In this document: positions 24,672 to 58,546 of the stretch, piece after piece
Numbering within the stretch: the first letter of the stretch is position 1
Layout of the letters: the number at the start of each line of letters is the position of its first letter
From: a virus
Lineage: Duplodnaviria > Caudoviricetes
IMG/VR virus record: IMGVR_UViG_3300031993_000017
Strand: one strand, 5' to 3'
DNA: 64,000 nucleotides
The notes under the pieces: generated by a model
What the model was told of the DNA's origin: nothing
Database searches by the model: none
Seen by the model: only the letters and a program-made list of their open reading frames with translations
Program-made: the position numbers and the translations under genes

Positions 24672-26939
24672 TTACATTTCCTTTCTAGAATTTTTAATTG
24701 AATAAGCCATCATCCTCCCGTAGAGAGTTTCGTTCTCTATCATATCTAGAAACTCTTCCCGAAGTATACGTCTTTTAACGATGTAGTCTTCGATGTTTTG
24801 TGTATACATCTCTGACACAACACCGTTTATTCCATGTGCAGGATCTCCCTTAGGTTTGCTACCATCAGGTTCATTGTAAACAGGTAACAAGTACTCCATT
24901 TCTCTAAGATGGTACTGAATCCATTTTATTTCTTCTGGATCAGTTGTATCAACCGACTTAGGTTTTGGATACTTACAAGGAAACTCTTCTCCATACCAAC
25001 GAAGTGTAGTAGTTACATCACACTTAGATGGGAACGGCAAGAAGTTAGCAGCTTCGCACATTATACTAGAAAGAAGTCTTCCACCTTCTTCCCAAGCCTC
25101 CATTGGAACTTCGGCTAATAACTCATCGTGGACGGGAATGAGTAATCTTCCGCATATCTTCTTCCAATCGGGGCTATTTTCTAGCATTATCATAGCAAGT
25201 TTTGTTTGGTCGGCCGCACTCTATATTACTATATCTTTCAAAATAGTACAGACTATATCTTCTGAATATGTTAAAACATTCAGTTCACCATTTCAACTGG
25301 TAACTCATCTTCCAGCTTACTCCTCAACAACGAGGATAGTCGTTACACTTTAATTTCTACTTTAGTCCAAGCATGTAATGTAGAAATTCTTAGCACGGTA
25401 TCACCTGCTATCCATTTCTGGACCGTAGGCTCTCTTAGTCAGCTGCTTCGTCATTTGAAATATGTATATCGCTTTAGCTTAGATACATTGTCTTATTCTG
25501 CTGATACCGTTAGCACTGCAATTATGCAGCACACCTATGAGTAATGTAGTTAGATGAATAAGGGCAGTGCAGCGGTCTACCCTGTATCATAGAATTCAGT
25601 GTCTGACGAGATCCGTCTTGAATCTTACTACGATTGTTAGTAACTCGTATGTGCTCATTCTCGTACAATTCTTTTATTCTAGGAGCCATCTGCCCCATGT
25701 ACTTGTACTGTTTGAATTCTTTGCACAATTCATCTTTTATTCTCTGCGGAATATCCGAAGATTCTTTTAAAGTAGAAGGATCTAAAGGATCTACATCCGG
25801 ATTAACGTATCCTTTCATTGCAGAAAATTCAAACTCGGGTAACTGCATCTCAGGAATATGTCTACGCCTCCCAAGTATTGTTTCAACATATCCATACTTT
25901 CGTGCAAACGCCTGTGCAGATTTCATAAGTGCTAAGATTCCAGGAAATGCTTTCAGAACAGAATCATATACTTTCTGAGCAGATTTCAATTTCTCCTCTT
26001 TTGTCATATCGTCGCGTTTGCCATACAACTGATCTGCAATAGACGGAATAGCACGACCATAGGTTATCAAATATGGTAAAATTTAGACTATATCATTACC
26101 GTGTTGTTCAACGGTACTTTGCGCTTCCGATGGTAACTCATCTTCCACCGTACAATTAGTCGTTAGACCTTATCAAGAATATTCTCGATCTTGGCACAGG
26201 ATTTGCATCAGCATTCCCTGTTAGCAGATTGATAAAGTGATCATTTCCTATCACACCAATTAAGTTCAATCCACACCCATGAGTAATATGGTTCACAAAG
26301 TTTTCATTCTACACTACAAGAGAACAACTTGTGTAGACGGGGCATAACCTTTTTAGTTTACCCAATAGTATTGTTTTTGCTTCTCCTCGACGCTTCTTAC
26401 CGTCAGGTTGGTACTCACCTGTTTCTGGATGAAACTCCAAACATTTTTCATATGGAACATTGAATGATAAACTTGCAATTCCTGCGTAAATGTCCCTTCC
26501 GTCTTGGAAGGTCTTTATCATTCCTTTATCACCGCTTATAAAAGCAGTTAATCTTGGTTCTTGTGCCTTGAACCTGTATTATGAATGTTCGCTACACATT
26601 CTCTCCGATCACTCGGAGTATCGGACTATATCTTAACACTGAAATTCTGTTACCAAATTTGCAGTGTTCCCTACGTTTCCACTTCGCTTGAAGCGTACTC
26701 TACTCGCTTGGTTATCTCAATTGACCTAGCACTACAGCTATTTATACATTTCTGTAAATGTCAATTTCTAGCATTCGATAGTCTCTACGGTTGTAAATTA
26801 TACAACCTCGGTATCGCCTTATTGTCGGTAAGGTTTCACCGATTTATAGGGTTTTACTACAGCACACAATTCTACTGTAGTCAGAAGACAACATTACATA
26901 GGCCGGGGTCTGTATCTGTATCTTCCAATCGCTTGACAA
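24672..26939 (-). CDS. polA: Family A DNA polymerase, C-terminal (palm/fingers) subunit; exons 26939-26874, 26566-26360, 26067-25579, 25220-24672 (~436 aa)
   Basis: Splicing restores motif A SSDYS|AQEPR, motif B RRGEAKTILLG|ITYG and IQG|SAAD; motif C VHDE; TTG start 7 nt after SD GGAGGTG. Confidence 0.85.
25221..25578 (-). ncRNA. Group I intron 4 in polA (358 nt, no ORF)
   Basis: Exon ends CAGGGU pairing with IGS GCCCU; P10 GCUGCACU/AGUGCGGC; GUAACGACUA and AAGAUAUAGUCU core; terminal G. Confidence 0.9.
26068..26359 (-). ncRNA. Group I intron 3 in polA (292 nt, no ORF)
   Basis: Exon GGGU/IGS GCCC; P10 GGUUAU/AUAACC; AACGACUA and GAUAUAGUCU core; terminal G. Confidence 0.9.
26567..26873 (-). 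ncRNA. Group I intron 2 in polA (307 nt, no ORF)
   Basis: Exon ACUACAGU/IGS GCUGUAGU; P10 UUGUGU/GCACAA; AGAGACUA and AAGAUAUAGUCC core; terminal G. Confidence 0.9.
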
Positions 26940-39607: not shown

Positions 39608-41062
39608 TTACAGATCTAATTCTGAGTACCACTTGATCCAAGGATTCATCTGTTCGAGCATATAAGATACTTTGAATACATCTTCGTCAAAGTATCTTTT
39701 TCCGATTACTTGTACGCCTATCGGTAGATTAGTTTCTTCATCCCTCATTACAGGAACCGAAGCTGCAGGTGTACCAATCATATTCTCTAAGAAGGTGTAA
39801 CCAAAACCTATCAGTGGATTGATAGGCTGACCAGATATTTCAGAGGGTCCTTCGGTGAGATTTTCTGAATAATCATTTAAGCAGTTCAAACAACCTGTTA
39901 CAGGAGCAAGGATGATATCATAATCTTTGAATATCTCATTATGTGCATCAAGAATCTCAGTTCTAAGTTCATGGAACTTTCGATAGTCTAACATGTTTGA
40001 AGAAAAAGCTTTCTTGTTCCATTCTACTAACTGTTCTGGAACATCTTTATGATCGAATGTACACAGACCTAACTCTTCGTCTATTGCTCCATCGACGCTG
40101 ATACTTCTGAGCCAAGCATCTTCGTACTCTTGTCTGCTAGAAGGAAAATTCATTTTTACAACACTTACTTCTACTCCAGCATCTTTCAGAATCGACATTG
40201 CGAGTTCAATGCTTTTTACAACTGCCGGTTCTGGATCCGGAAAAAGATCAAAATTGAATGTAACTGCGATTTTCATACCACGAATCGGTTGATCTAATGT
40301 TTTTAAGAAATGTTTCTTAGGAAGCGGTACACTGATTGGATCTGCAGGATCATATCGCATCATTTCATCCATCATAACTGCAGCGTCATATACACTCCTT
40401 GTGATAGGCCCTCCACAGCAATATGGATGCGTAGCTGTCCAAGCATCAGGTCTGCAAACACTAGGAACAAGTCCTGCAGAAGGTTTGAATCCAAAACATC
40501 CACACCAGGCAGCAGGAATTCGGATTGATCCACCTGCATCCCCGCCTTCTGCCATTGCTAACATACCTGCAGATACTGCTGATGCGCTTCCTCCAGACGA
40601 GCCACCTGAATTGTATTTAGGATTAAACGGAGAAGATGTTGGACCATACATAGAATTATCACAAGTTCCTCTAAAACCGAAAGACGGAGAATTGGTTTTG
40701 CCGATGACAATTGCTCCTAAATTTTCAGCAGCTTTGCAAAATTCAGAATCATATTCATCTACTGTAACAAGTGATCTTACTCCACCATGAGAGGCAGTCC
40801 AACCTCGTTTAGAAGGAAGAAAGTCTTTCAGTCCTACAGGAACACCAGCAAACGGTCCACAATATTCACCTTTAGAGAGAGAAGCTTCAATGCTTTTTGC
40901 ACGCTTCCTTGCTTCATCAAATTTGGTGTAGACAACAGCATTTACCTTCGAGTTCACTGCATTGATTCGTTTTTCATACTGATCTAGGATTTCACTAGGC
41001 GATATTTTTCGCTCATTAACTAGATTCCCGAGTTCAAATGCTCGACAATAAAATATGTTCAT
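39608..41062 (-). CDS. Amidase-signature (GatA-like) amidase
   Basis: GVPVGLKD, GKTN.P, GGSSGGSA, DAGGSIRIPA: intact Lys-cisSer-Ser triad. Confidence 0.92.
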   Translation of the reverse strand: MNIFYCRAFELGNLVNERKISPSEILDQYEKRINAVNSKVNAVVYTKFDEARKRAKSIEASLSKGEYCGPFAGVPVGLKDFLPSKRGWTASHGGVRSLVTVDEYDSEFCKAAENLGAIVIGKTNSPSFGFRGTCDNSMYGPTSSPFNPKYNSGGSSGGSASAVSAGMLAMAEGGDAGGSIRIPAAWCGCFGFKPSAGLVPSVCRPDAWTATHPYCCGGPITRSVYDAAVMMDEMMRYDPADPISVPLPKKHFLKTLDQPIRGMKIAVTFNFDLFPDPEPAVVKSIELAMSILKDAGVEVSVVKMNFPSSRQEYEDAWLRSISVDGAIDEELGLCTFDHKDVPEQLVEWNKKAFSSNMLDYRKFHELRTEILDAHNEIFKDYDIILAPVTGCLNCLNDYSENLTEGPSEISGQPINPLIGFGYTFLENMIGTPAASVPVMRDEETNLPIGVQVIGKRYFDEDVFKVSYMLEQMNPWIKWYSELDL

Positions 41063-41256: not shown

Positions 41257-41853
41257 TCAGACTCTTATCAACGAATAGAATTCAGATCTCAAATCAGAAT
41301 CAGTTTCAAATCTTCCTCTTAAAGTAGCAGTTTTTGTAATAGCTTCTCTCGATTTGATTCCACGAGCTGTCATACATCCATGCTTTCCTTGAATGACTAC
41401 AATGATATCAGTTGTACCTAAAACCATTTCAAGCACATCTGCAATATCTGATCCGATACGTTCCTGCAGTTGCAATCGTTTACCAACCATATCTGCGATC
41501 CTAGCGAGCTTGCTTAAACCTATAACTTTACCTCTAGGAATGTATCCGATTGCGACTGACATATCATACATCAACATGATATGGTGTTCACAAAATGAAT
41601 GAATAGGAATGTTGCTTTCAACTACTAAATCTCCAGTCTCTACATCTTCAAAACATGTATTGAACATTTCTGCGATATCTTCATTAGAATAGTTCATACC
41701 TTCAAAGATTTCTTCACACATCCTAGCCACTCGATCAGGAGTCTTTTTCAATCCCTCTCTATCAGGATCATCTCCTAATGCTATTAAGAATTCTCGTGTA
41801 AGCTCTTCTATCTTAGCCGTATCAATTGTTTTATTCAAGTTCTTGTATCCCAT
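41257..41853 (-). CDS. folE: GTP cyclohydrolase I
   Basis: REGL..TP.RV, CEHH, GLSKLAR, QER, HGCM..RG. Confidence 0.95.
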
Positions 41854-41854
41854 A

Positions 41855-42616
41855 TTATACTCCTTGTTTGTTGCCCCAAACTAATGTATGAATCTGCGGC
41901 AAAATGTAAATATTTTGAAATTGTTCTGGATTTTTGTTGATAACATCTAGCAAATGTTCATAATCTGTTAGTACTCTATCTCGAATACTGTCGCTAGTAT
42001 CAACATCGGAATTTCCAACACTTAGATACATTCTTAAGTTGATGTTGTTATCATGTCTGATGTTGTTATCATTTTTTCTGATGAATTCATTCACGAACTT
42101 TGCGTAGTTTCTAGCAAATTCTATATCTTCATCATTGAATACCGGGATTTTAATTGATACATCTGCGCTTTGAATGTGATTGTTTTCCAATATGTAAGTG
42201 GTTATTTCTTTGTATGTATCTGGCATTCCACTTGAAGGTGGTTTAGGGCTGAAAACTATCTGATCTACATGTGATAACCAATCTGGAATTTTACTACCTT
42301 GAGTTTCAATATCTACTTTGATATTGTTACATCTTAACTCTGAAATGATACGCTCAAAATCATACAGGCAAGGATTTCCGCCGGTTAGCACAATTCTGTT
42401 ACAACTGTTTTCCTTACACATAGTTATCAAGTGTTTAGTCAGCTCATCATCAGTGTATTGTGTGAAGTTCGGCTCGTTGTTCCATGTGAATTTTGAATCG
42501 CAGAAACTGCAAGCAAAGTCACAACCTTTAACTCTGACAAAGATACACCGTGCTCCTACATTAGGTCCTTCACCTTGGATAGAACTGAATATTTCTACTA
42601 CATTTATTTTACTCAT
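41855..42616 (-). CDS. queE: 7-carboxy-7-deazaguanine synthase (radical SAM)
   Basis: [11 protein letters not shown]...C..CD, LTGGNP, SPK, PQIH. Confidence 0.95.
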
Positions 42617-42617
42617 G

Positions 42618-43055
42618 TTATTCCCTCCGGCATATTGCGATGTTGTTATCAGTCTCTCGAACATCTACCTCAGTCACATACAGTTCTTGATCAATTTTCT
42701 TGATAGCTTCGTCAATCATCTTGAAAAATATTTCTGCCATCCACTCGGCTGTAGGATTGTCCTCAACAATGTGAACTTTCTTGCAGTTCTGCTTGATGAC
42801 TTCAGCGAGAGGATCACAGGAACGAAGAATACATGAATGATCATAAGGAATCTCAATTGTTTCCTGAACTATATTCTTCAACTGTTTAAAATCTATGACC
42901 ATTCCTGCATCGTTGTACTTATCTCTAGACACTACAACTGTTACACCATATGAATGTCCGTGAATGTTAGACCTACACTCTTCTGAATACGTTGCAACAT
43001 CATATAGTCTATGTGCTGCTTCAAATGTAAGATATGTTTTTACTTCTTGGATCAT
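42618..43055 (-). CDS. queD: 6-carboxytetrahydropterin synthase
   Basis: FEAAH, C..IHGHSY, GMVIDF, DH, PTAE, ET. Confidence 0.95.
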   Translation of the reverse strand: MIQEVKTYLTFEAAHRLYDVATYSEECRSNIHGHSYGVTVVVSRDKYNDAGMVIDFKQLKNIVQETIEIPYDHSCILRSCDPLAEVIKQNCKKVHIVEDNPTAEWMAEIFFKMIDEAIKKIDQELYVTEVDVRETDNNIAICRRE

Positions 43056-43810
43056 TTTTGTTCTCTCCCTTCACAGTTGTAAATCGACACACATCCGCTC
43101 CAGTCGATTTCACACTCATAAGGTACTGGATCAATTACTCTGTTAGATCTAAATGCTTCTATTCTATCAATACAAGTACCACATTTTCCACACGCACATT
43201 TTCTACCATTGTAGCAAGAAGTAGTTAGTTCAAATGGAACTTTTAGACGAAGTCCTTCGGCAACTACTTGACTTTTATTCATATGAATGAGCGGACGCTC
43301 TACATGAATTTTATCATAAGTTCCAATCTGGATAGCCTTGTCCATAGCGTCTGCAAATTCAGGAGAGCAGTCAGCATACGCATTTCCGGCAGCGTCGTCT
43401 GCATGAGCTCCATAGAAAATTGCTACTTCTTCTCCAGGGAATAAACTATCCGCATAAGCCGCTGCAAGTGAGAGGAACAATCCGTTTCGAAATGGTACAT
43501 ATGACGATACTCGTCCCTCACCGTTTTCCTTGATTTGCTCTGCATAACTTTTATCAGGAATTTCTTTTTCAGATCCTTGTAAGAGTGAACACACATTTTT
43601 AGCATATTTCATTACGCCTGAAATATCGTCCTCGATGTGCTTTACACCATAATGCTCTGCGACTTTTCTTGCACACTCCAATTCCATGGAGTGCTTCTGG
43701 TTGTAAAACAGGCTAGCAGTGATTACATTTTCTTTTCCATATCTGTCTACAGCAATACCAACGCATACTGTGGAGTCACATCCGCCTGATGACAACACTA
43801 ATGCTTTCAT
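43052..43810 (-). CDS. queC: 7-cyano-7-deazaguanine synthase
   Basis: SSGGCDS, YVPFRN, YADC, SCY...CG.C.TC..R. Confidence 0.95.
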   Translation of the reverse strand: MKALVLSSGGCDSTVCVGIAVDRYGKENVITASLFYNQKHSMELECARKVAEHYGVKHIEDDISGVMKYAKNVCSLLQGSEKEIPDKSYAEQIKENGEGRVSSYVPFRNGLFLSLAAAYADSLFPGEEVAIFYGAHADDAAGNAYADCSPEFADAMDKAIQIGTYDKIHVERPLIHMNKSQVVAEGLRLKVPFELTTSCYNGRKCACGKCGTCIDRIEAFRSNRVIDPVPYECEIDWSGCVSIYNCEGREQK

Positions 43811-43821
43811 AATTATCCTCC

Positions 43822-43867
43822 AAAAATATAGGACCAATTCAGTCGGTAAACAACTAAACTGATCCTA
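43822..43867 (-). terminator. Intrinsic terminator/attenuator immediately upstream of the queC SD
   Basis: TAGGATCAGTTTAGTTG-loop-CGACTGAATTGGTCCTA followed by TATTTTT then GGAGG. Confidence 0.75.
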
Positions 43868-43886
43868 ACTCTATCATTTATTGTTC

Positions 43887-43947
43887 CAACTGTTATTTTT
43901 GATTATTTTAATTTGCAGGGTTTCAAGTTGTGTACAAAACTGCAAAT
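43887..43947 (-). promoter_or_regulatory. Candidate preQ1-I-like riboswitch variant, copy B (queC leader)
   Basis: Stem AUUUGCAG/CUGCAAAU, loop UUUUGUACACAACUUGAAACC, tail UAAAAUAAUCAAAAAUAACAGUUG. Confidence 0.7.
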
Positions 43948-43956
43948 ATTAGAACA

Positions 43957-44463
43957 TCAAGATGTTCTAGGTCTATGACTCATGTTGTGCTGCATAACAT
44001 CAAGCATTCTAGCTTTTTTAATATCAACATGATCTTCATCTGCATAACAACTCCACGGAATTATGCTACAGCCGCCACGTGAGTTGAAGTCTCCATACAC
44101 CTCTAGATACTTCGGATCAAGAAGGTCTACCAGATCTTGCATGATAGCATGAACACATGACTCATGAAAATCACCGTGTTGCTGAAATGAAAATAAATAA
44201 AGTTTAAGTGACTTTGATTCAACCATATACTTATTAGGAATATAAGAGATATGGATTGTTGCAAAATCTGGTTGACCAGTACGGGGGCATTTCGAGCAAA
44301 ACTCGAAACAATCTAAGCTGACGATCTGCTCATCTTCTGTAGATTCTTCAAATTTTCGCTCGAACTTCTCGAGAATACTTGGATCATAATCAAATACATA
44401 CTTTGTATTTTGATTTCCAAGTAGTGTTACACCTGACAGGTCTTGTGTGTTACTGTTTGACAT
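43957..44463 (-). CDS. queF: NADPH-dependent preQ0 reductase (type I)
   Basis: CPRTGQPDFA, VESKSLKLYL QueF motif, FHE, RGG. Confidence 0.95.
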   Translation of the reverse strand: MSNSNTQDLSGVTLLGNQNTKYVFDYDPSILEKFERKFEESTEDEQIVSLDCFEFCSKCPRTGQPDFATIHISYIPNKYMVESKSLKLYLFSFQQHGDFHESCVHAIMQDLVDLLDPKYLEVYGDFNSRGGCSIIPWSCYADEDHVDIKKARMLDVMQHNMSHRPRTS

Positions 44464-44472
44464 TTTGAATGT

Positions 44473-44531
44473 CCTCCTTTTATTTTTGTTTTTAACGGTG
44501 AGGGTGTCAAGGAAATCTACAAAACTCACCG
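44473..44531 (-). promoter_or_regulatory. Candidate preQ1-I-like riboswitch variant, copy A (queF leader)
   Basis: Stem CGGUGAG/CUCACCG, loop UUUUGUAGAUUUCCUUGACACC, tail UUAAAAACAAAAAUAAAAGGAGG. Confidence 0.72.
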
Positions 44532-44546
44532 GTACTTACATAAATT

Positions 44547-45638
44547 TTATCTTGCTGCTTCTCTTAATTCGTTTACTTTCTTCTGGATTGTTCGTGCAAA
44601 TGACTTTTCAGAAGGTAGTGTCCGCAAATTCAATTGATAAGTATTTTCGTAGTTACCTAATCCTATAACTAGCTCTATTGACGTGTAACGCCTATCGTAA
44701 CGACTATTCCTTTGTGCCAATGGTGTGTAGCAATAGAGACTCAACATATCTTCAAGCGAAGTTTTCCCTTCTTCTTTTGGTTGTCCGTTGTCATCTAAGT
44801 ACGGGGAGTACCGAGGCGCATAATGTACATCAAATGAAATGTCGGGGTACTCAAAACGGGCAGTATCAACCATCGCCTCAAACCGATCTCGATAGCTTAT
44901 TACTTCTGATAAATCGTCGCAGCGCAGTTCAAAATTGTCATGTATTTTCTGAAAATATTCGAGCTTACTCTCTAGATAAGATTTAAAATCATTACAACAG
45001 GTTTCGGTAGCTTTATCTACAAATCCTATCTTCAGAATGTTGTCCTTACCGAACGTACTATAGAAATCAGATTGTTCTGAAATAATCGGATCTTCAGTTA
45101 ACGACATATCAACAGTTGTGTACACGGCAATACCTGAATAGGTAGTAGGGTTGATATCGACATCAATATTAGATACATCTAATCCAGGATAAGGAAGTAA
45201 AGATTCTAATGAATCTTTGATATGATCGGCAAAATCTGAGCTCACAAGATACGATATAGTTTCTTCTTGATCTAATGTGTAAGGAATCATACCTGAGTTA
45301 TCGGTAGGATGAAAACCTCTAACCTGCACCCCATCAAATGATATGTCGCAAAATCCGCTAAAGTTTACAGAATCATATCCGGTTTCAAATGATTTAAGAT
45401 AAAATACTGGCACATCATGAATAACGCATGTTACAGTAACACTATACTCACCATGATAATGGTAGGGCTCACCGATATGGAGTATTTCTGCACTAGATCT
45501 TGTACCATAAAATTTGTTCAGGTATTCTTCTAGATAATCGTTCACTCTTTGAACAACAAGCTCCTCCCAATTCTCAGGAAGTGTTGCAACATCCTTCTTC
45601 TTAGGTCTTAAGGTAGATGAATAAATTCTCTTTCTCAT
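44547..45638 (-). CDS. Hypothetical protein with MRKRIYSS leader
   Basis: ATG 45638 after SD GGAGGA. Confidence 0.65.
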   Translation of the reverse strand: MRKRIYSSTLRPKKKDVATLPENWEELVVQRVNDYLEEYLNKFYGTRSSAEILHIGEPYHYHGEYSVTVTCVIHDVPVFYLKSFETGYDSVNFSGFCDISFDGVQVRGFHPTDNSGMIPYTLDQEETISYLVSSDFADHIKDSLESLLPYPGLDVSNIDVDINPTTYSGIAVYTTVDMSLTEDPIISEQSDFYSTFGKDNILKIGFVDKATETCCNDFKSYLESKLEYFQKIHDNFELRCDDLSEVISYRDRFEAMVDTARFEYPDISFDVHYAPRYSPYLDDNGQPKEEGKTSLEDMLSLYCYTPLAQRNSRYDRRYTSIELVIGLGNYENTYQLNLRTLPSEKSFARTIQKKVNELREAAR

Positions 45639-45673
45639 GTATTGTGTCCTCCAACTTATCTTTTGTTCTGTAA

Positions 45674-46036
45674 TCAAGAGTTCTCCGAAATTTCGTTTAA
45701 GATGTAACTTCGGTATAATCGTTTGAAGTCACTCGGAGAATTTGACTTATGACAAATTTCTAATATATCATAATTGTATTGATAAACAGAAATTCCAAAT
45801 TCCTCAAACCGATCGTCTCCGGTATCATCACTGAATATGAAGACTGCTTCTGACCCGTAACCTTCAGCTTCCATAAATACATGTAAATCATCTAGCACTT
45901 CCCACTCGTATTTAACAACATGTGCTGCGAGATCTTGCATGGCCTCATCGTACTCATATTGAGTCATTTCGGTATCAAATATACCTAAATCAAAATCATT
46001 TAACCAATCGGTTGATGAATAAATTTTCTTTCTCAT
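45674..46036 (-). CDS. Acidic hypothetical protein with MRKKIYSS leader; paralogue of 46979-47317
   Basis: Shared WEVLDDL..FME..GYG...F.FSDD.G.DRFEEF. Confidence 0.7.
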   Translation of the reverse strand: MRKKIYSSTDWLNDFDLGIFDTEMTQYEYDEAMQDLAAHVVKYEWEVLDDLHVFMEAEGYGSEAVFIFSDDTGDDRFEEFGISVYQYNYDILEICHKSNSPSDFKRLYRSYILNEISENS

Positions 46037-51755: not shown

Positions 51756-53219
51756 TCAGAAATCATGAACAATTTCTTTGACACCGCATTTTTCAATGAT
51801 ATCGTCAAACTCATCTGTATGTATAAAGACTGTGAGATTTTCGCAACCCCAGAAAGCCTCAGCACTTATTGTTAATACAGAGTCTGGAATGACAAGTTTT
51901 GTTAAGTTTTCACATCCTCGGAAACAAGAAAATCCTATCAATTCCAGGCTAGAAGGTAGATTTATATTCTTCAAAGACTCACACCAGAGAAATGCCGAAC
52001 CTCTTAATCTAGTCACACCCTCAGGTAGACGAACAGTCTCTAGTTGTCCGCATTCTTTGAAACATCGTGCAGGAATTTCATCTACTCCATTTGGTATCAC
52101 AACTTCAGTCAATTTTGCTCTCCAGAATGCTCCGGTACCTAAACGTACATTATTGGGTAGATCTACGTCGCGTAATCCAGACTCTGCAAATGCACCTTGT
52201 CCAATTGAGCGAACAGACTTAGGAATCTTTACTGATACTAGGTTAGGACATTCGTCAAATGCCCAATCAGGAATCTCTTCAAGACCTTCTGGCAAAACTA
52301 CATGTTGGATGCTTTCATTTTCTGAAAATGCGCCGCTATCTAATGTAGTACCTTTTAGTAATGTAAAATCAGACGAATCTTCATATGATTTTACAAATTG
52401 TGGTTTATCGTGACTTAGTTCAACATCACCAAGTTTTGTTGCTTCTCCATACTTGTACAATTCAGAATCACGTACAACATACTTCGGCGACTTGTCTATA
52501 TGATAATCAAGTGCTTTTGCAAATGGTGGATGGTCTTCTAAGAATTCTATCAATCGTTCCAGACCTAACTCATCGTCGTTGAAATTGAAGAACCAAGATT
52601 TCGTAGAAGGGCTGCTTTGGTACTTGCGTTTTGGATTCCGAGTATTGATAAAAATATAGAGCGGACCATAATAAGAATACCGTTTCCAATATGCATCATC
52701 ACCGGAATAGGCTGTACACCATTTTGCTTTCTCACCGCCCCACTGGGCGAGTGAAATTGAGCCTTCGTAGGTCAATGGTTGCCAAAGCTCCCACTCTTTA
52801 TCTTTTGCAAGCAATTTCTTATCCTTATCGCCTGCGTTATGCACATTTCGTTGAAGCTCTTTTTGACGTTCGGTGTCTGAAAGTGGAAGTTCACCAACTC
52901 TTGCAGAATCCTCCAAGAACTCATCTACAGTCTTGTATCTTCCTAAGTCAGAGTATGTGAAGGACTTGGATCTCTTGACAAACATATCTAACGCATCTTT
53001 AATATTGTTGTAATCATAATTGCTGAAATTTTGTTTAGAATATTGATTCAGAAGCCAGACTGCATATTTTCCACCTGAAGTTGAACCTTCCTTGAATGTT
53101 GGATCTAGCCTTATGATTTCATCAAAATCATCTTTGCTGATGGAAGGAAACTGGGTGATAAGTCGGTCAATGCTGACTGCAGAGCTAACATAAGTAAATG
53201 ATTTTATATAACGTTTCAT
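51756..53219 (-). CDS. BspA-type leucine-rich repeat protein with MKRYIKS leader
   Basis: About 8 repeats of L..V.IP..V..IG..AF..C; N-terminal domain with KWCTA motif. Confidence 0.85.
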   Translation of the reverse strand: MKRYIKSFTYVSSAVSIDRLITQFPSISKDDFDEIIRLDPTFKEGSTSGGKYAVWLLNQYSKQNFSNYDYNNIKDALDMFVKRSKSFTYSDLGRYKTVDEFLEDSARVGELPLSDTERQKELQRNVHNAGDKDKKLLAKDKEWELWQPLTYEGSISLAQWGGEKAKWCTAYSGDDAYWKRYSYYGPLYIFINTRNPKRKYQSSPSTKSWFFNFNDDELGLERLIEFLEDHPPFAKALDYHIDKSPKYVVRDSELYKYGEATKLGDVELSHDKPQFVKSYEDSSDFTLLKGTTLDSGAFSENESIQHVVLPEGLEEIPDWAFDECPNLVSVKIPKSVRSIGQGAFAESGLRDVDLPNNVRLGTGAFWRAKLTEVVIPNGVDEIPARCFKECGQLETVRLPEGVTRLRGSAFLWCESLKNINLPSSLELIGFSCFRGCENLTKLVIPDSVLTISAEAFWGCENLTVFIHTDEFDDIIEKCGVKEIVHDF

Positions 53220-57292: not shown

Positions 57293-58546
57293 CTAAATAT
57301 TACATGCGTTTACCACAATTGGATGTAACGCTACACCCTCTACTCCGTTTGCATAGGCATTCGGAAATACTTTTTTAAGAATCTGTAAACTCCCATTCAC
57401 ATCGGCGTTGATAAGTTTCTCCGTATTACTCTGAAATAATCCTCTGTGGACTCGTCTCTCTTTTCTGTAGTTCTCTTTAATCGGTGATTCATTATCTAAG
57501 AAACTTGTTCCACTTGTATAACTTTCTTCTGTGAGCACTACAGATATACCATATTCTTCAGCTTTATATTGGATCATCTCTATCAATCTGTTATATGGTA
57601 TCTGTATAAAAGATTGGTTAATTCTTTTGCTCATTTCTGATTTCTGTTTCCAACCTTTATTTTTGCCTATAACTATTACAGAAACATCGTCTTTACGAGC
57701 TTTGTCAACTATGTATCTACTTGCCTGATGTAAATAGTTGTCAACAATCTGATTTCTTTTTTCTGTTATACTCCGTATCCTCTTTGTCGAATGTCTATTA
57801 TTCATTCTCATAGCAATTGACTTATAATGAGCTAACAATTTATTGTAGTATTTGTTCTCAGACTTCAGACCCTTACCGTTTATTATAAATGGTTGTTCAC
57901 CAAAATTATTTGTTACGGTTGCTAAGTTATCTAAGCCTATGTCAATACTATAATATCTGTTATTATCACCTATTGTTTCCGAAATTTCTACATTATAAAC
58001 CACCTCCAATTCAATATGATTTGCTTTAGGTATGAACCTTACTTGCTGAAATGACACATAGTTTTCTTTGCTTATAAATAATGGCTCAACTGTAAAACCA
58101 TTAAATACTTTTGGAAACTGTAAGATACCATTTTTCAATTTTACTTCTTGATTTGTAAGGATCAAAATTGATCTTCCGTTTTTATCTTTGTACTTTGGCA
58201 GTTTCGGTTTTCCTAAGTATTTATCTTTATGGTTCTTCCAATCTTTAATTGATGCAAAGAATGATTTCCAATTCTTATCAAGTAATCTAAGTACCTGCTG
58301 TGCAGACTGTGCGGTTGGCATATTTTTATAGTCAGGATACCTTGCATCAGCTTTCAATGTTTTATCCAAGTCTTCATATCTTAACCAGTTGTCATTGTTT
58401 ACAAATTCTTGTCTAATTAAATAGTTGGCGTGGTTATACAAATTTTTTGCGTTAAAGCAAAAACCATCTATAAGATAATAATAAGTATTTGTTTGTCTGA
58501 TTTTGTGTTTTTCTACTCTTTGAATTACCATATTTATTATTACCAT
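57293..58546 (-). mobile_element. tnpB: Second TnpB (IS200/IS605 family, no tnpA)
   Basis: SIDIGLDNL, IVIGKNKGWKQ, EESYTS, INADVNGSLQI. Confidence 0.9.

Follow-up and report, generated by a model that had tools for sequence, protein, structure and literature searches.

A probable phage-borne riboswitch family resembling class I preQ1 aptamers, present twice in one que operon

The leaders of queF (copy A) and queC (copy B) in a phage que operon are probably members of a phage-borne family of riboswitches that switch 7-deazaguanine genes off, most likely in response to preQ1 and perhaps to preQ0 as well. Both lie in the window, the whole 64,000-nucleotide stretch of phage DNA that was analysed. 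As is generally expected of a riboswitch, a conserved and covarying aptamer stands in cis before genes of one pathway, and its expression platforms overlap it. Judged by the searches described below, the family appears to be a conserved RNA switch that is listed in no RNA catalogue.

Two leaders in one que operon

The genes around both copies are all on the minus strand, in the order 376-aa ORF, queF, queC, queD, queE, folE and amidase. One element lies in the 83 nt that precede queF and one in the 146 nt that separate queF from queC, copy B beginning 10 nt past the queF stop codon. The features are listed in the direction of transcription, with coordinates taken from the sequence unless another basis is given.

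44547-45677, minus strand: 376-aa ORF that ends 16 nt before copy A; no Pfam, PHROGs or PADLOC match, best PDB match unconvincing (E 0.023)
44473-44531, minus strand: copy A aptamer and expression platform (queF leader), made up of P1, a 22-nt loop, an A-rich L3 and the P2 3' strand (sequence and covariance model R1)
44525-44531, minus strand: copy A P1 5' strand, which pairs with 44496-44502 through seven Watson-Crick pairs
44524-44503, minus strand: copy A loop, 22 nt
44509-44515, minus strand: copy A P2 5' strand (anti-SD) within the loop, which pairs with 44473-44479 through five Watson-Crick and two G-U pairs (family P2 register and covariation)
44495-44480, minus strand: copy A A-rich tail (L3)
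44479-44473, minus strand: copy A P2 3' strand, which contains the queF Shine-Dalgarno sequence (SD)
44473-44478, minus strand: queF SD, AGGAGG, within the P2 3' strand
43957-44463, minus strand: queF (7-cyano-7-deazaguanine reductase), the gene that copy A would control; Pfam QueF PF14489 (3.3e-32), ATG at 44463-44461
43886-43947, minus strand: copy B aptamer (queC leader) (sequence and R1)
43947-43940 with 43918-43911, minus strand: copy B P1, 8 bp
43939-43919, minus strand: copy B loop, 21 nt
43926-43930, minus strand: copy B P2 5' strand, CAACU, which pairs with AGUUG at 43887-43891 (a compensatory variant of the family P2)
43910-43893, minus strand: copy B tail (L3)
43810-43052, minus strand: queC (Pfam QueC)
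41257-43810, minus strand: queC, queD, queE and folE, downstream of copy B and its terminator (Pfam QueC, PTPS, Radical_SAM and GTP_cyclohydroI)
39608-41062, minus strand: full-length amidase-signature protein just downstream of folE in the same orientation; Pfam Amidase (6.6e-86), PHROG 29364 (function unknown)

A first-pass annotation of this DNA had described two leaders that share an architecture and differ in their stems, and this description was confirmed on the minus strand at 44531-44473 (before queF) and 43947-43886 (before queC). In each copy a stem of 7-8 bp carries a loop of 21-22 nt whose ends are conserved; an A-rich tail follows, and loop and tail pair with each other. Both copies share the loop start (UUUUGUA), the loop end (UGAMACC) and the tail block (AAAAAUAA); the last eight nucleotides of the tail are identical, and it is the stems and the loop-tail pairings that differ. 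A pattern made of the shared blocks matched twice in the window, against 0.00 matches expected from 100 shuffles. The model R1, which was built from other members of the family, scored copy A at 60.4 bits (E 5e-9) and copy B at 40.3 bits (E 4e-5).

The amidase beside folE could modify a deazaguanine intermediate, and a DNA-modification purpose for the pathway is plausible. No DpdA or TGT protein was recognised among the tested ORFs of the 64-kb window using Pfam, PHROGs, PADLOC and PDB sequences, and no close relatives of the window phage were found among GenBank phages. Elsewhere on the minus strand of the window, the replication module contains a group I intron match (26602-26894; RF00028, 50.2 bits, right at the gathering score), 57293-58546 encodes an IS605 OrfB/TnpB-like protein (OrfB_IS605 and a Cas12f1-like TNB domain), and 51756-53219 encodes a BspA-type leucine-rich repeat protein (LRR_5, 1.3e-47).

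The family, its structure and its covariation

Relatives were gathered by sequence-pattern scans of IMG/VR viral contigs, of one genome per prokaryote species and of metagenomes, and candidates were kept only if the closing stem was present. R1 was trained on 12 members found in this way and then run over the collected loci, where it returned 91 matches, 74 of them distinct, from phage contigs, metagenomes and three bacterial MAGs or isolates. The first-pass annotation had proposed that a covariance model be built and that conservation be sought in homologous leaders; the model now describes 74 distinct relatives in which both P1 and P2 covary. The model-made alignment contains 46 different P1 5' strands. 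Across 185,579 species-representative genomes the strict pattern found only three true bacterial members, one copy each, carried by a Lachnospiraceae MAG, a Ruminococcaceae MAG and a Bacteroidaceae isolate. The family was thus found almost only in phages.

The patterns that yielded most members prescribed UUUUGUA, UGAMA and AAAAAUAA. These blocks are thus invariant in part by construction, and a protein-based sampling was therefore added as a check on bias. Eighty phage queF loci were retrieved through an alignment of QueF proteins, with no RNA pattern involved, and in 25 of them the motif lay directly upstream of queF on the coding strand. The members sampled through QueF vary somewhat in the otherwise fixed blocks (UUAUGUA, altered tails). 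In most of the other 55 loci queF is coupled to the gene before it, which leaves no leader. An Rfam search of 40 phage queF loci, 37 of them without an R1 match, returned zero families of any kind, and a literature search for an earlier description of this leader family produced nothing relevant.

Gene context was examined in 88 distinct members from a motif scan of the same loci, the first downstream gene being classed by local HMMs and 17 of the assignments checked against Pfam. That gene encodes QueF in 32 members and a Vut_1/YhhQ transporter in 46; four were lost at contig ends and the rest are special cases. Only copy B of the window is followed by queC, and in related phages queC comes straight after queF without a second element. 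The earlier proposal of a conserved cis-regulatory RNA tied to 7-deazaguanine genes is supported by this QueF/Vut_1 context together with the covariation of P1 and P2.

Some members have unusual neighbours. A complete 200-kb phage (L220; G005:C1:30434-31288) carries two tandem copies, a translational one before a Vut_1 transporter gene and a terminator-type one before queF. The putatively riboswitch-controlled phage QueF at L156 (574-2082, plus strand) is 503 aa long and has an intein-like insert with Intein_splicing, HNH_3 and HTH domains. At L441 (883-937, minus strand) the member is followed by an ORF of about 29 aa and then by a short-chain dehydrogenase, in place of QueF or the transporter.

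In the 74-sequence alignment P1 is 98.3% paired, with double changes in six of its seven pairs. P2, the helix between loop and tail, is 84.1% paired in one fixed register and has double changes in four of its five pairs; much of this P2 signal is a concerted register shift of the SD/anti-SD pair, and SD-independent variants are few (about eight sequences). The covariation score was 0.519, compared with a shuffle mean of 0.178 (0 of 500 shuffles reached 0.519) and at most 0.154 for slid partners. In most members P2 is an anti-SD:SD helix, and the variants that do not involve the SD still pair (AACCUU:AAGGUU, CUCAU:AUGAG and GCCU:AGGC, besides copy B). The covariation first noticed between the two copies, UUCCU:AGGAG in copy A and CAACU:AGUUG in copy B, is confirmed, and P2 covaries in the family as well.

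P2 keeps a constant position relative to its neighbours. Its 5' strand always ends immediately before the conserved GA of the loop end and its 3' strand always starts immediately after the conserved tail block, and the U residues between the loop CC and GA match in number the nucleotides that separate the tail block from GGAG. This is the geometry of the junction-proximal P2 pair in an H-type pseudoknot. The first-pass annotation had counted the pairing as a third, extra helix, and this part of its description was abandoned: because the pairing occupies the H-type P2 position, in fixed register beside the conserved loop end and tail block, and is the anti-SD:SD helix in most members, it is best regarded as the counterpart of the class I P2 and not as an addition to it.

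The loop is 18-23 nt long (mode 21). It comprises an L1 of 8-13 nt, in which the conserved UUUUGUA is followed by 1-6 nt, the 5' strand of P2, and a GAMAYC-like L2 of 6-7 nt. P2 has 4-7 canonical base pairs and spans the whole SD, P1 has 5-9 bp, and L3 is 12-31 nt long (mode 13) and ends in the conserved A-rich block. The P1-closing pair (columns 7:33) is G-C and the base directly 5' of the P1 3' strand (column 31) is C in 74/74 sequences each, the search patterns having fixed some of these columns. The base before this C is C in 42, U in 16 (22%) and G in 16 of the 74 sequences and is never A. The position equivalent to the beta-site C of type I is A in all 74.

Other pairings were considered and not adopted. 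Loop UUUUG can be paired with tail YAAAA in 98% of cells, invariant except for G:C versus G:U. The first-pass annotation had listed this possibility as UUUG:CAAA, which can indeed be drawn in both copies; as a classical pseudoknot it is without independent support, because the columns hardly vary and were mostly fixed by the search patterns, and with linkers of only about 4 nt it would be sterically hard to place atop P1. An internal loop helix suggested by RNAfold (UGU/ACA) has an invariant G12 whose partner is C or A, with no covariation. One member (L154, 8859-8934, minus strand; L360, 4735-4810, minus strand) has an extra small GAAA-loop hairpin inserted in L3, which recalls the class II P4.

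Predicted control of queF and queC

The aptamer is predicted to be an H-type pseudoknot like that of class I preQ1 riboswitches, with a P1 closed by G-C, a loop that starts with UU, a C at the specificity position and a P2 between loop and tail; its A-rich L3 would lie in the minor groove of P1. In copy A, P2 buries the AGGAGG at 44478-44473, 9 nt upstream of the queF ATG, and nearly all relatives are arranged in the same way. Stabilisation of P2 by the ligand would block the queF SD and so prevent translation initiation within a polycistronic mRNA. As only 16 nt separate the upstream 376-aa ORF from P1, queF is probably co-transcribed with that ORF.

Copy B leads into two alternative hairpins, the second of which directly precedes the queC SD (43821-43817) and ATG (43810).

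43840-43892, minus strand: copy B antiterminator hairpin, with a 5' half at 43892-43873 that includes the P2 3' strand and a 3' half at 43863-43840 that overlaps the terminator (stepwise transcript folding)
43822-43867, minus strand: intrinsic terminator, with a 17-bp stem at 43867-43829 and a U-tract at 43828-43822 (terminator scan)

The terminator has a folding energy of -21.9 kcal/mol (z -7.7), and 0 of 200 shuffles were as good. The antiterminator, at about -13 kcal/mol, is the minimum-energy fold until the transcript reaches approximately 43836; its base is the P2 3' strand, and its 3' half consists of the 5' strand and apex of the terminator. Ligand binding would lock the P2 3' strand in the pseudoknot, the antiterminator would lose its strongest seven pairs, the terminator would form, and transcription would halt before queC, queD, queE and folE. 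Seven other terminator-type members with a non-SD P2 have the same layout, and in these the sequences of P2, antiterminator and terminator change together. Both platforms predict an off switch.

The arrangement in copy B and these seven relatives, with the P2 3' strand in an antiterminator that competes with an intrinsic terminator, is like that of the preQ1-I (type II) switch of Bacillus subtilis queC. Copy B differs from it in lying inside an operon, between queF and queC, instead of at the 5' end, and its aptamer departs from that switch in the same ways as from type I, which are set out below.

Relation to known preQ1 riboswitches and identity of the ligand

The comparison with the Rfam preQ1 models proposed in the first-pass annotation was carried out with Rfam 15. 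The preQ1-I, -II and -III models (RF00522, RF01054 and RF02680) had no match anywhere in the window at the gathering threshold, which is 39 bits for RF00522, and none at E<=10 in 1 kb, in 91 nt around copy A or in two further copies in L154. As a positive control, the RF00522 model found classical aptamers in 17 of 101 Lachnospiraceae genomes. R1 in turn detected 11 of 14 classical Lachnospiraceae preQ1-I aptamers, with 17-29 bits and only at the RF00522 positions; no other R1 match below E=1 occurred in 42 kb. The fetched classical aptamers have a 12-nt loop, and their tails differ from the family tail by essentially one C-to-A change and one inserted A. The weak cross-detection by R1 and the near-identical tails led us to read the family as a derived, enlarged, class I-like H-type pseudoknot, and it is filed here, from its sequence features, as a variant derived from class I and not as a member of RF00522.

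That the leaders are simply an overlooked riboswitch of catalogued class I, II or III is the least probable of the readings considered. The general H-type layout, the A-rich tail, the pairing with the SD and the weak R1 cross-matches to classical aptamers are what such a reading would explain. It is opposed by the absence of RF00522, RF01054 and RF02680 matches in the window, at E<=10 and in the 40 related queF loci, by the loop of 18-23 nt in place of 12 nt in the fetched classical aptamers, and by a 2024 review that names only five preQ1 motifs in all (PMC11625349). The earlier description of a class I-like aptamer with a much larger loop is supported by the same loop lengths.

In class I the pocket is built from the G-C pair that closes P1, the one or two U residues that follow its 5' strand, a specificity C that precedes its 3' strand and adenines of L3 (PMC11625349, PMC8752633), and all of these elements are present and invariant in the family. 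The base before the specificity C is U in type I and A in types II and III (PMC11625349), and in the type I structure from Carnobacterium antarcticum a CUA in the 3' platform carries the beta-site C31 (PMC8752633). Because the beta-site C is replaced by A and a U precedes the specificity C in only 22% of sequences, the pocket cannot match that of any solved class I type.

Type I (RF00522) is nevertheless the closest known relative. The order of elements is the same (P1, L1, P2, L2, P1', L3, P2'), as are the closing G-C, the UU after the P1 5' strand and the C before the P1 3' strand; L3 and the tail are near-identical to those of type I-like Lachnospiraceae aptamers, the SD is paired in P2, genes of the queF and yhhQ type are controlled, and R1 weakly detects such aptamers. 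In contrast, the longer loop of the family holds an L1 with the conserved UUUUGUA and a variable spacer and a GAMAYC-like L2, its P2 pairs the whole SD through 4-7 canonical pairs, its P1 is longer (5-9 bp), and the CUA of the tail reads AUA, with loss of the beta-site C. Members are almost all on phage contigs and have no RF00522 score at E<=10.

Type III, as known from Escherichia coli, shares with the family the UU atop P1 and an SD that is fully buried by a Watson-Crick P2. According to the description in PMC11625349 of the work in PMC10622847, no class I model is smaller or more stringent than type III, which has AC ahead of P1' and is nearly confined to Pseudomonadota. The family has a loop about twice as long and a C, U or G before the specificity C, and its bacterial carriers are Lachnospiraceae, Ruminococcaceae and Bacteroidaceae. 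Class II (RF01054) resembles it in another respect: in preQ1-II riboswitches a longer canonical helix joins the hairpin loop to the SD and switches translation off. There, however, the anti-SD directly abuts the 3' strand of the stem and a P4 hairpin is embedded in the linker, whereas in the family a conserved L2 of 6-7 nt intervenes and a linker hairpin occurs in one member only.

The closest QueF relatives of the window (82% identity; L020, 2426-2490, plus strand, and L021, 2424-2492, plus strand) have a more divergent leader, to which R1 gives only 7-8 bits. Its loop starts with UUCG as in classical type I, and matched insertions in loop and tail form a 5-7 bp anti-SD:SD helix, so that it resembles a classical loop and tail with insertions that make a long P2. 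This type of leader was seen in three contigs only, and a pattern written for it returned only chance matches and two contigs that were already known.

The identity of the ligand is suggested by the genes and by the pocket. Feedback by the product on both queF and an importer, and a pocket like that of class I, point to preQ1, which is the most likely ligand. It is unlikely, though the second most probable reading of the element, that the RNA folds and switches as described but responds to something other than preQ1, such as preQ0 alone, another 7-deazaguanine of phage DNA (of the CDG or ADG type, or a modified preQ1 derivative) or a purine. Phages make several deazaguanines other than queuosine, the family is almost restricted to them, and an amidase adjoins folE; the pocket is unlike that of every solved class I type, having A in place of the beta-site C and C, U or G before the specificity C, and the conserved L1 block is absent from class I. 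Against this, the aptamer retains the floor pair, the UU and the specificity C, and the transporter family that it would control is reported to import both preQ0 and preQ1. QueF consumes preQ0 and makes preQ1, and its repression would fit feedback by the product, not preQ0 as the sole ligand.

It is very improbable that the leader senses no metabolite and instead acts as an operator, bound by a phage or host protein or by a small RNA, with the pseudoknot setting a basal level of translation or termination. The conserved single-stranded UUUUGUA and the A-rich tail could be protein-binding sites. The element, however, is spread over numerous unrelated phage contigs and three bacterial assemblies of three families, precedes three gene families of one pathway with two expression platforms, and has the pocket features and tail of class I. 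No conserved co-occurring regulator gene was noticed on informal inspection.

Within the preferred reading of a preQ1-type switch, a bolder proposal can be made, which we hold only tentatively and regard as doubtful. The aptamer may be structurally distinct, as a fourth type of class I or a new class, with the UUUUGUA of its long L1 acting as a novel tertiary element, such as a triplex in the major groove of P2 or an additional site for ligand. Phages would have tuned such an aptamer to the pool of deazaguanine that serves DNA hypermodification, and its ligand preference may differ from that of bacterial preQ1 switches.

Work on the smallest RNA folds that sense a ligand uses the preQ1 riboswitches as a model system. 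A widespread variant whose loop is doubled, whose pocket is altered and whose P2 buries the SD in a fully canonical helix would show how much remodelling such a fold tolerates. The occurrence of one aptamer with two expression platforms in a single operon offers a compact natural pair for the comparison of translational and transcriptional control. The family would add a phage-specific branch to the preQ1 riboswitches. Phages would then use metabolite feedback on the supply of precursor, both by synthesis through QueF and QueC and by import through YhhQ-type transporters, and this supply probably feeds 7-deazaguanine modification of DNA.
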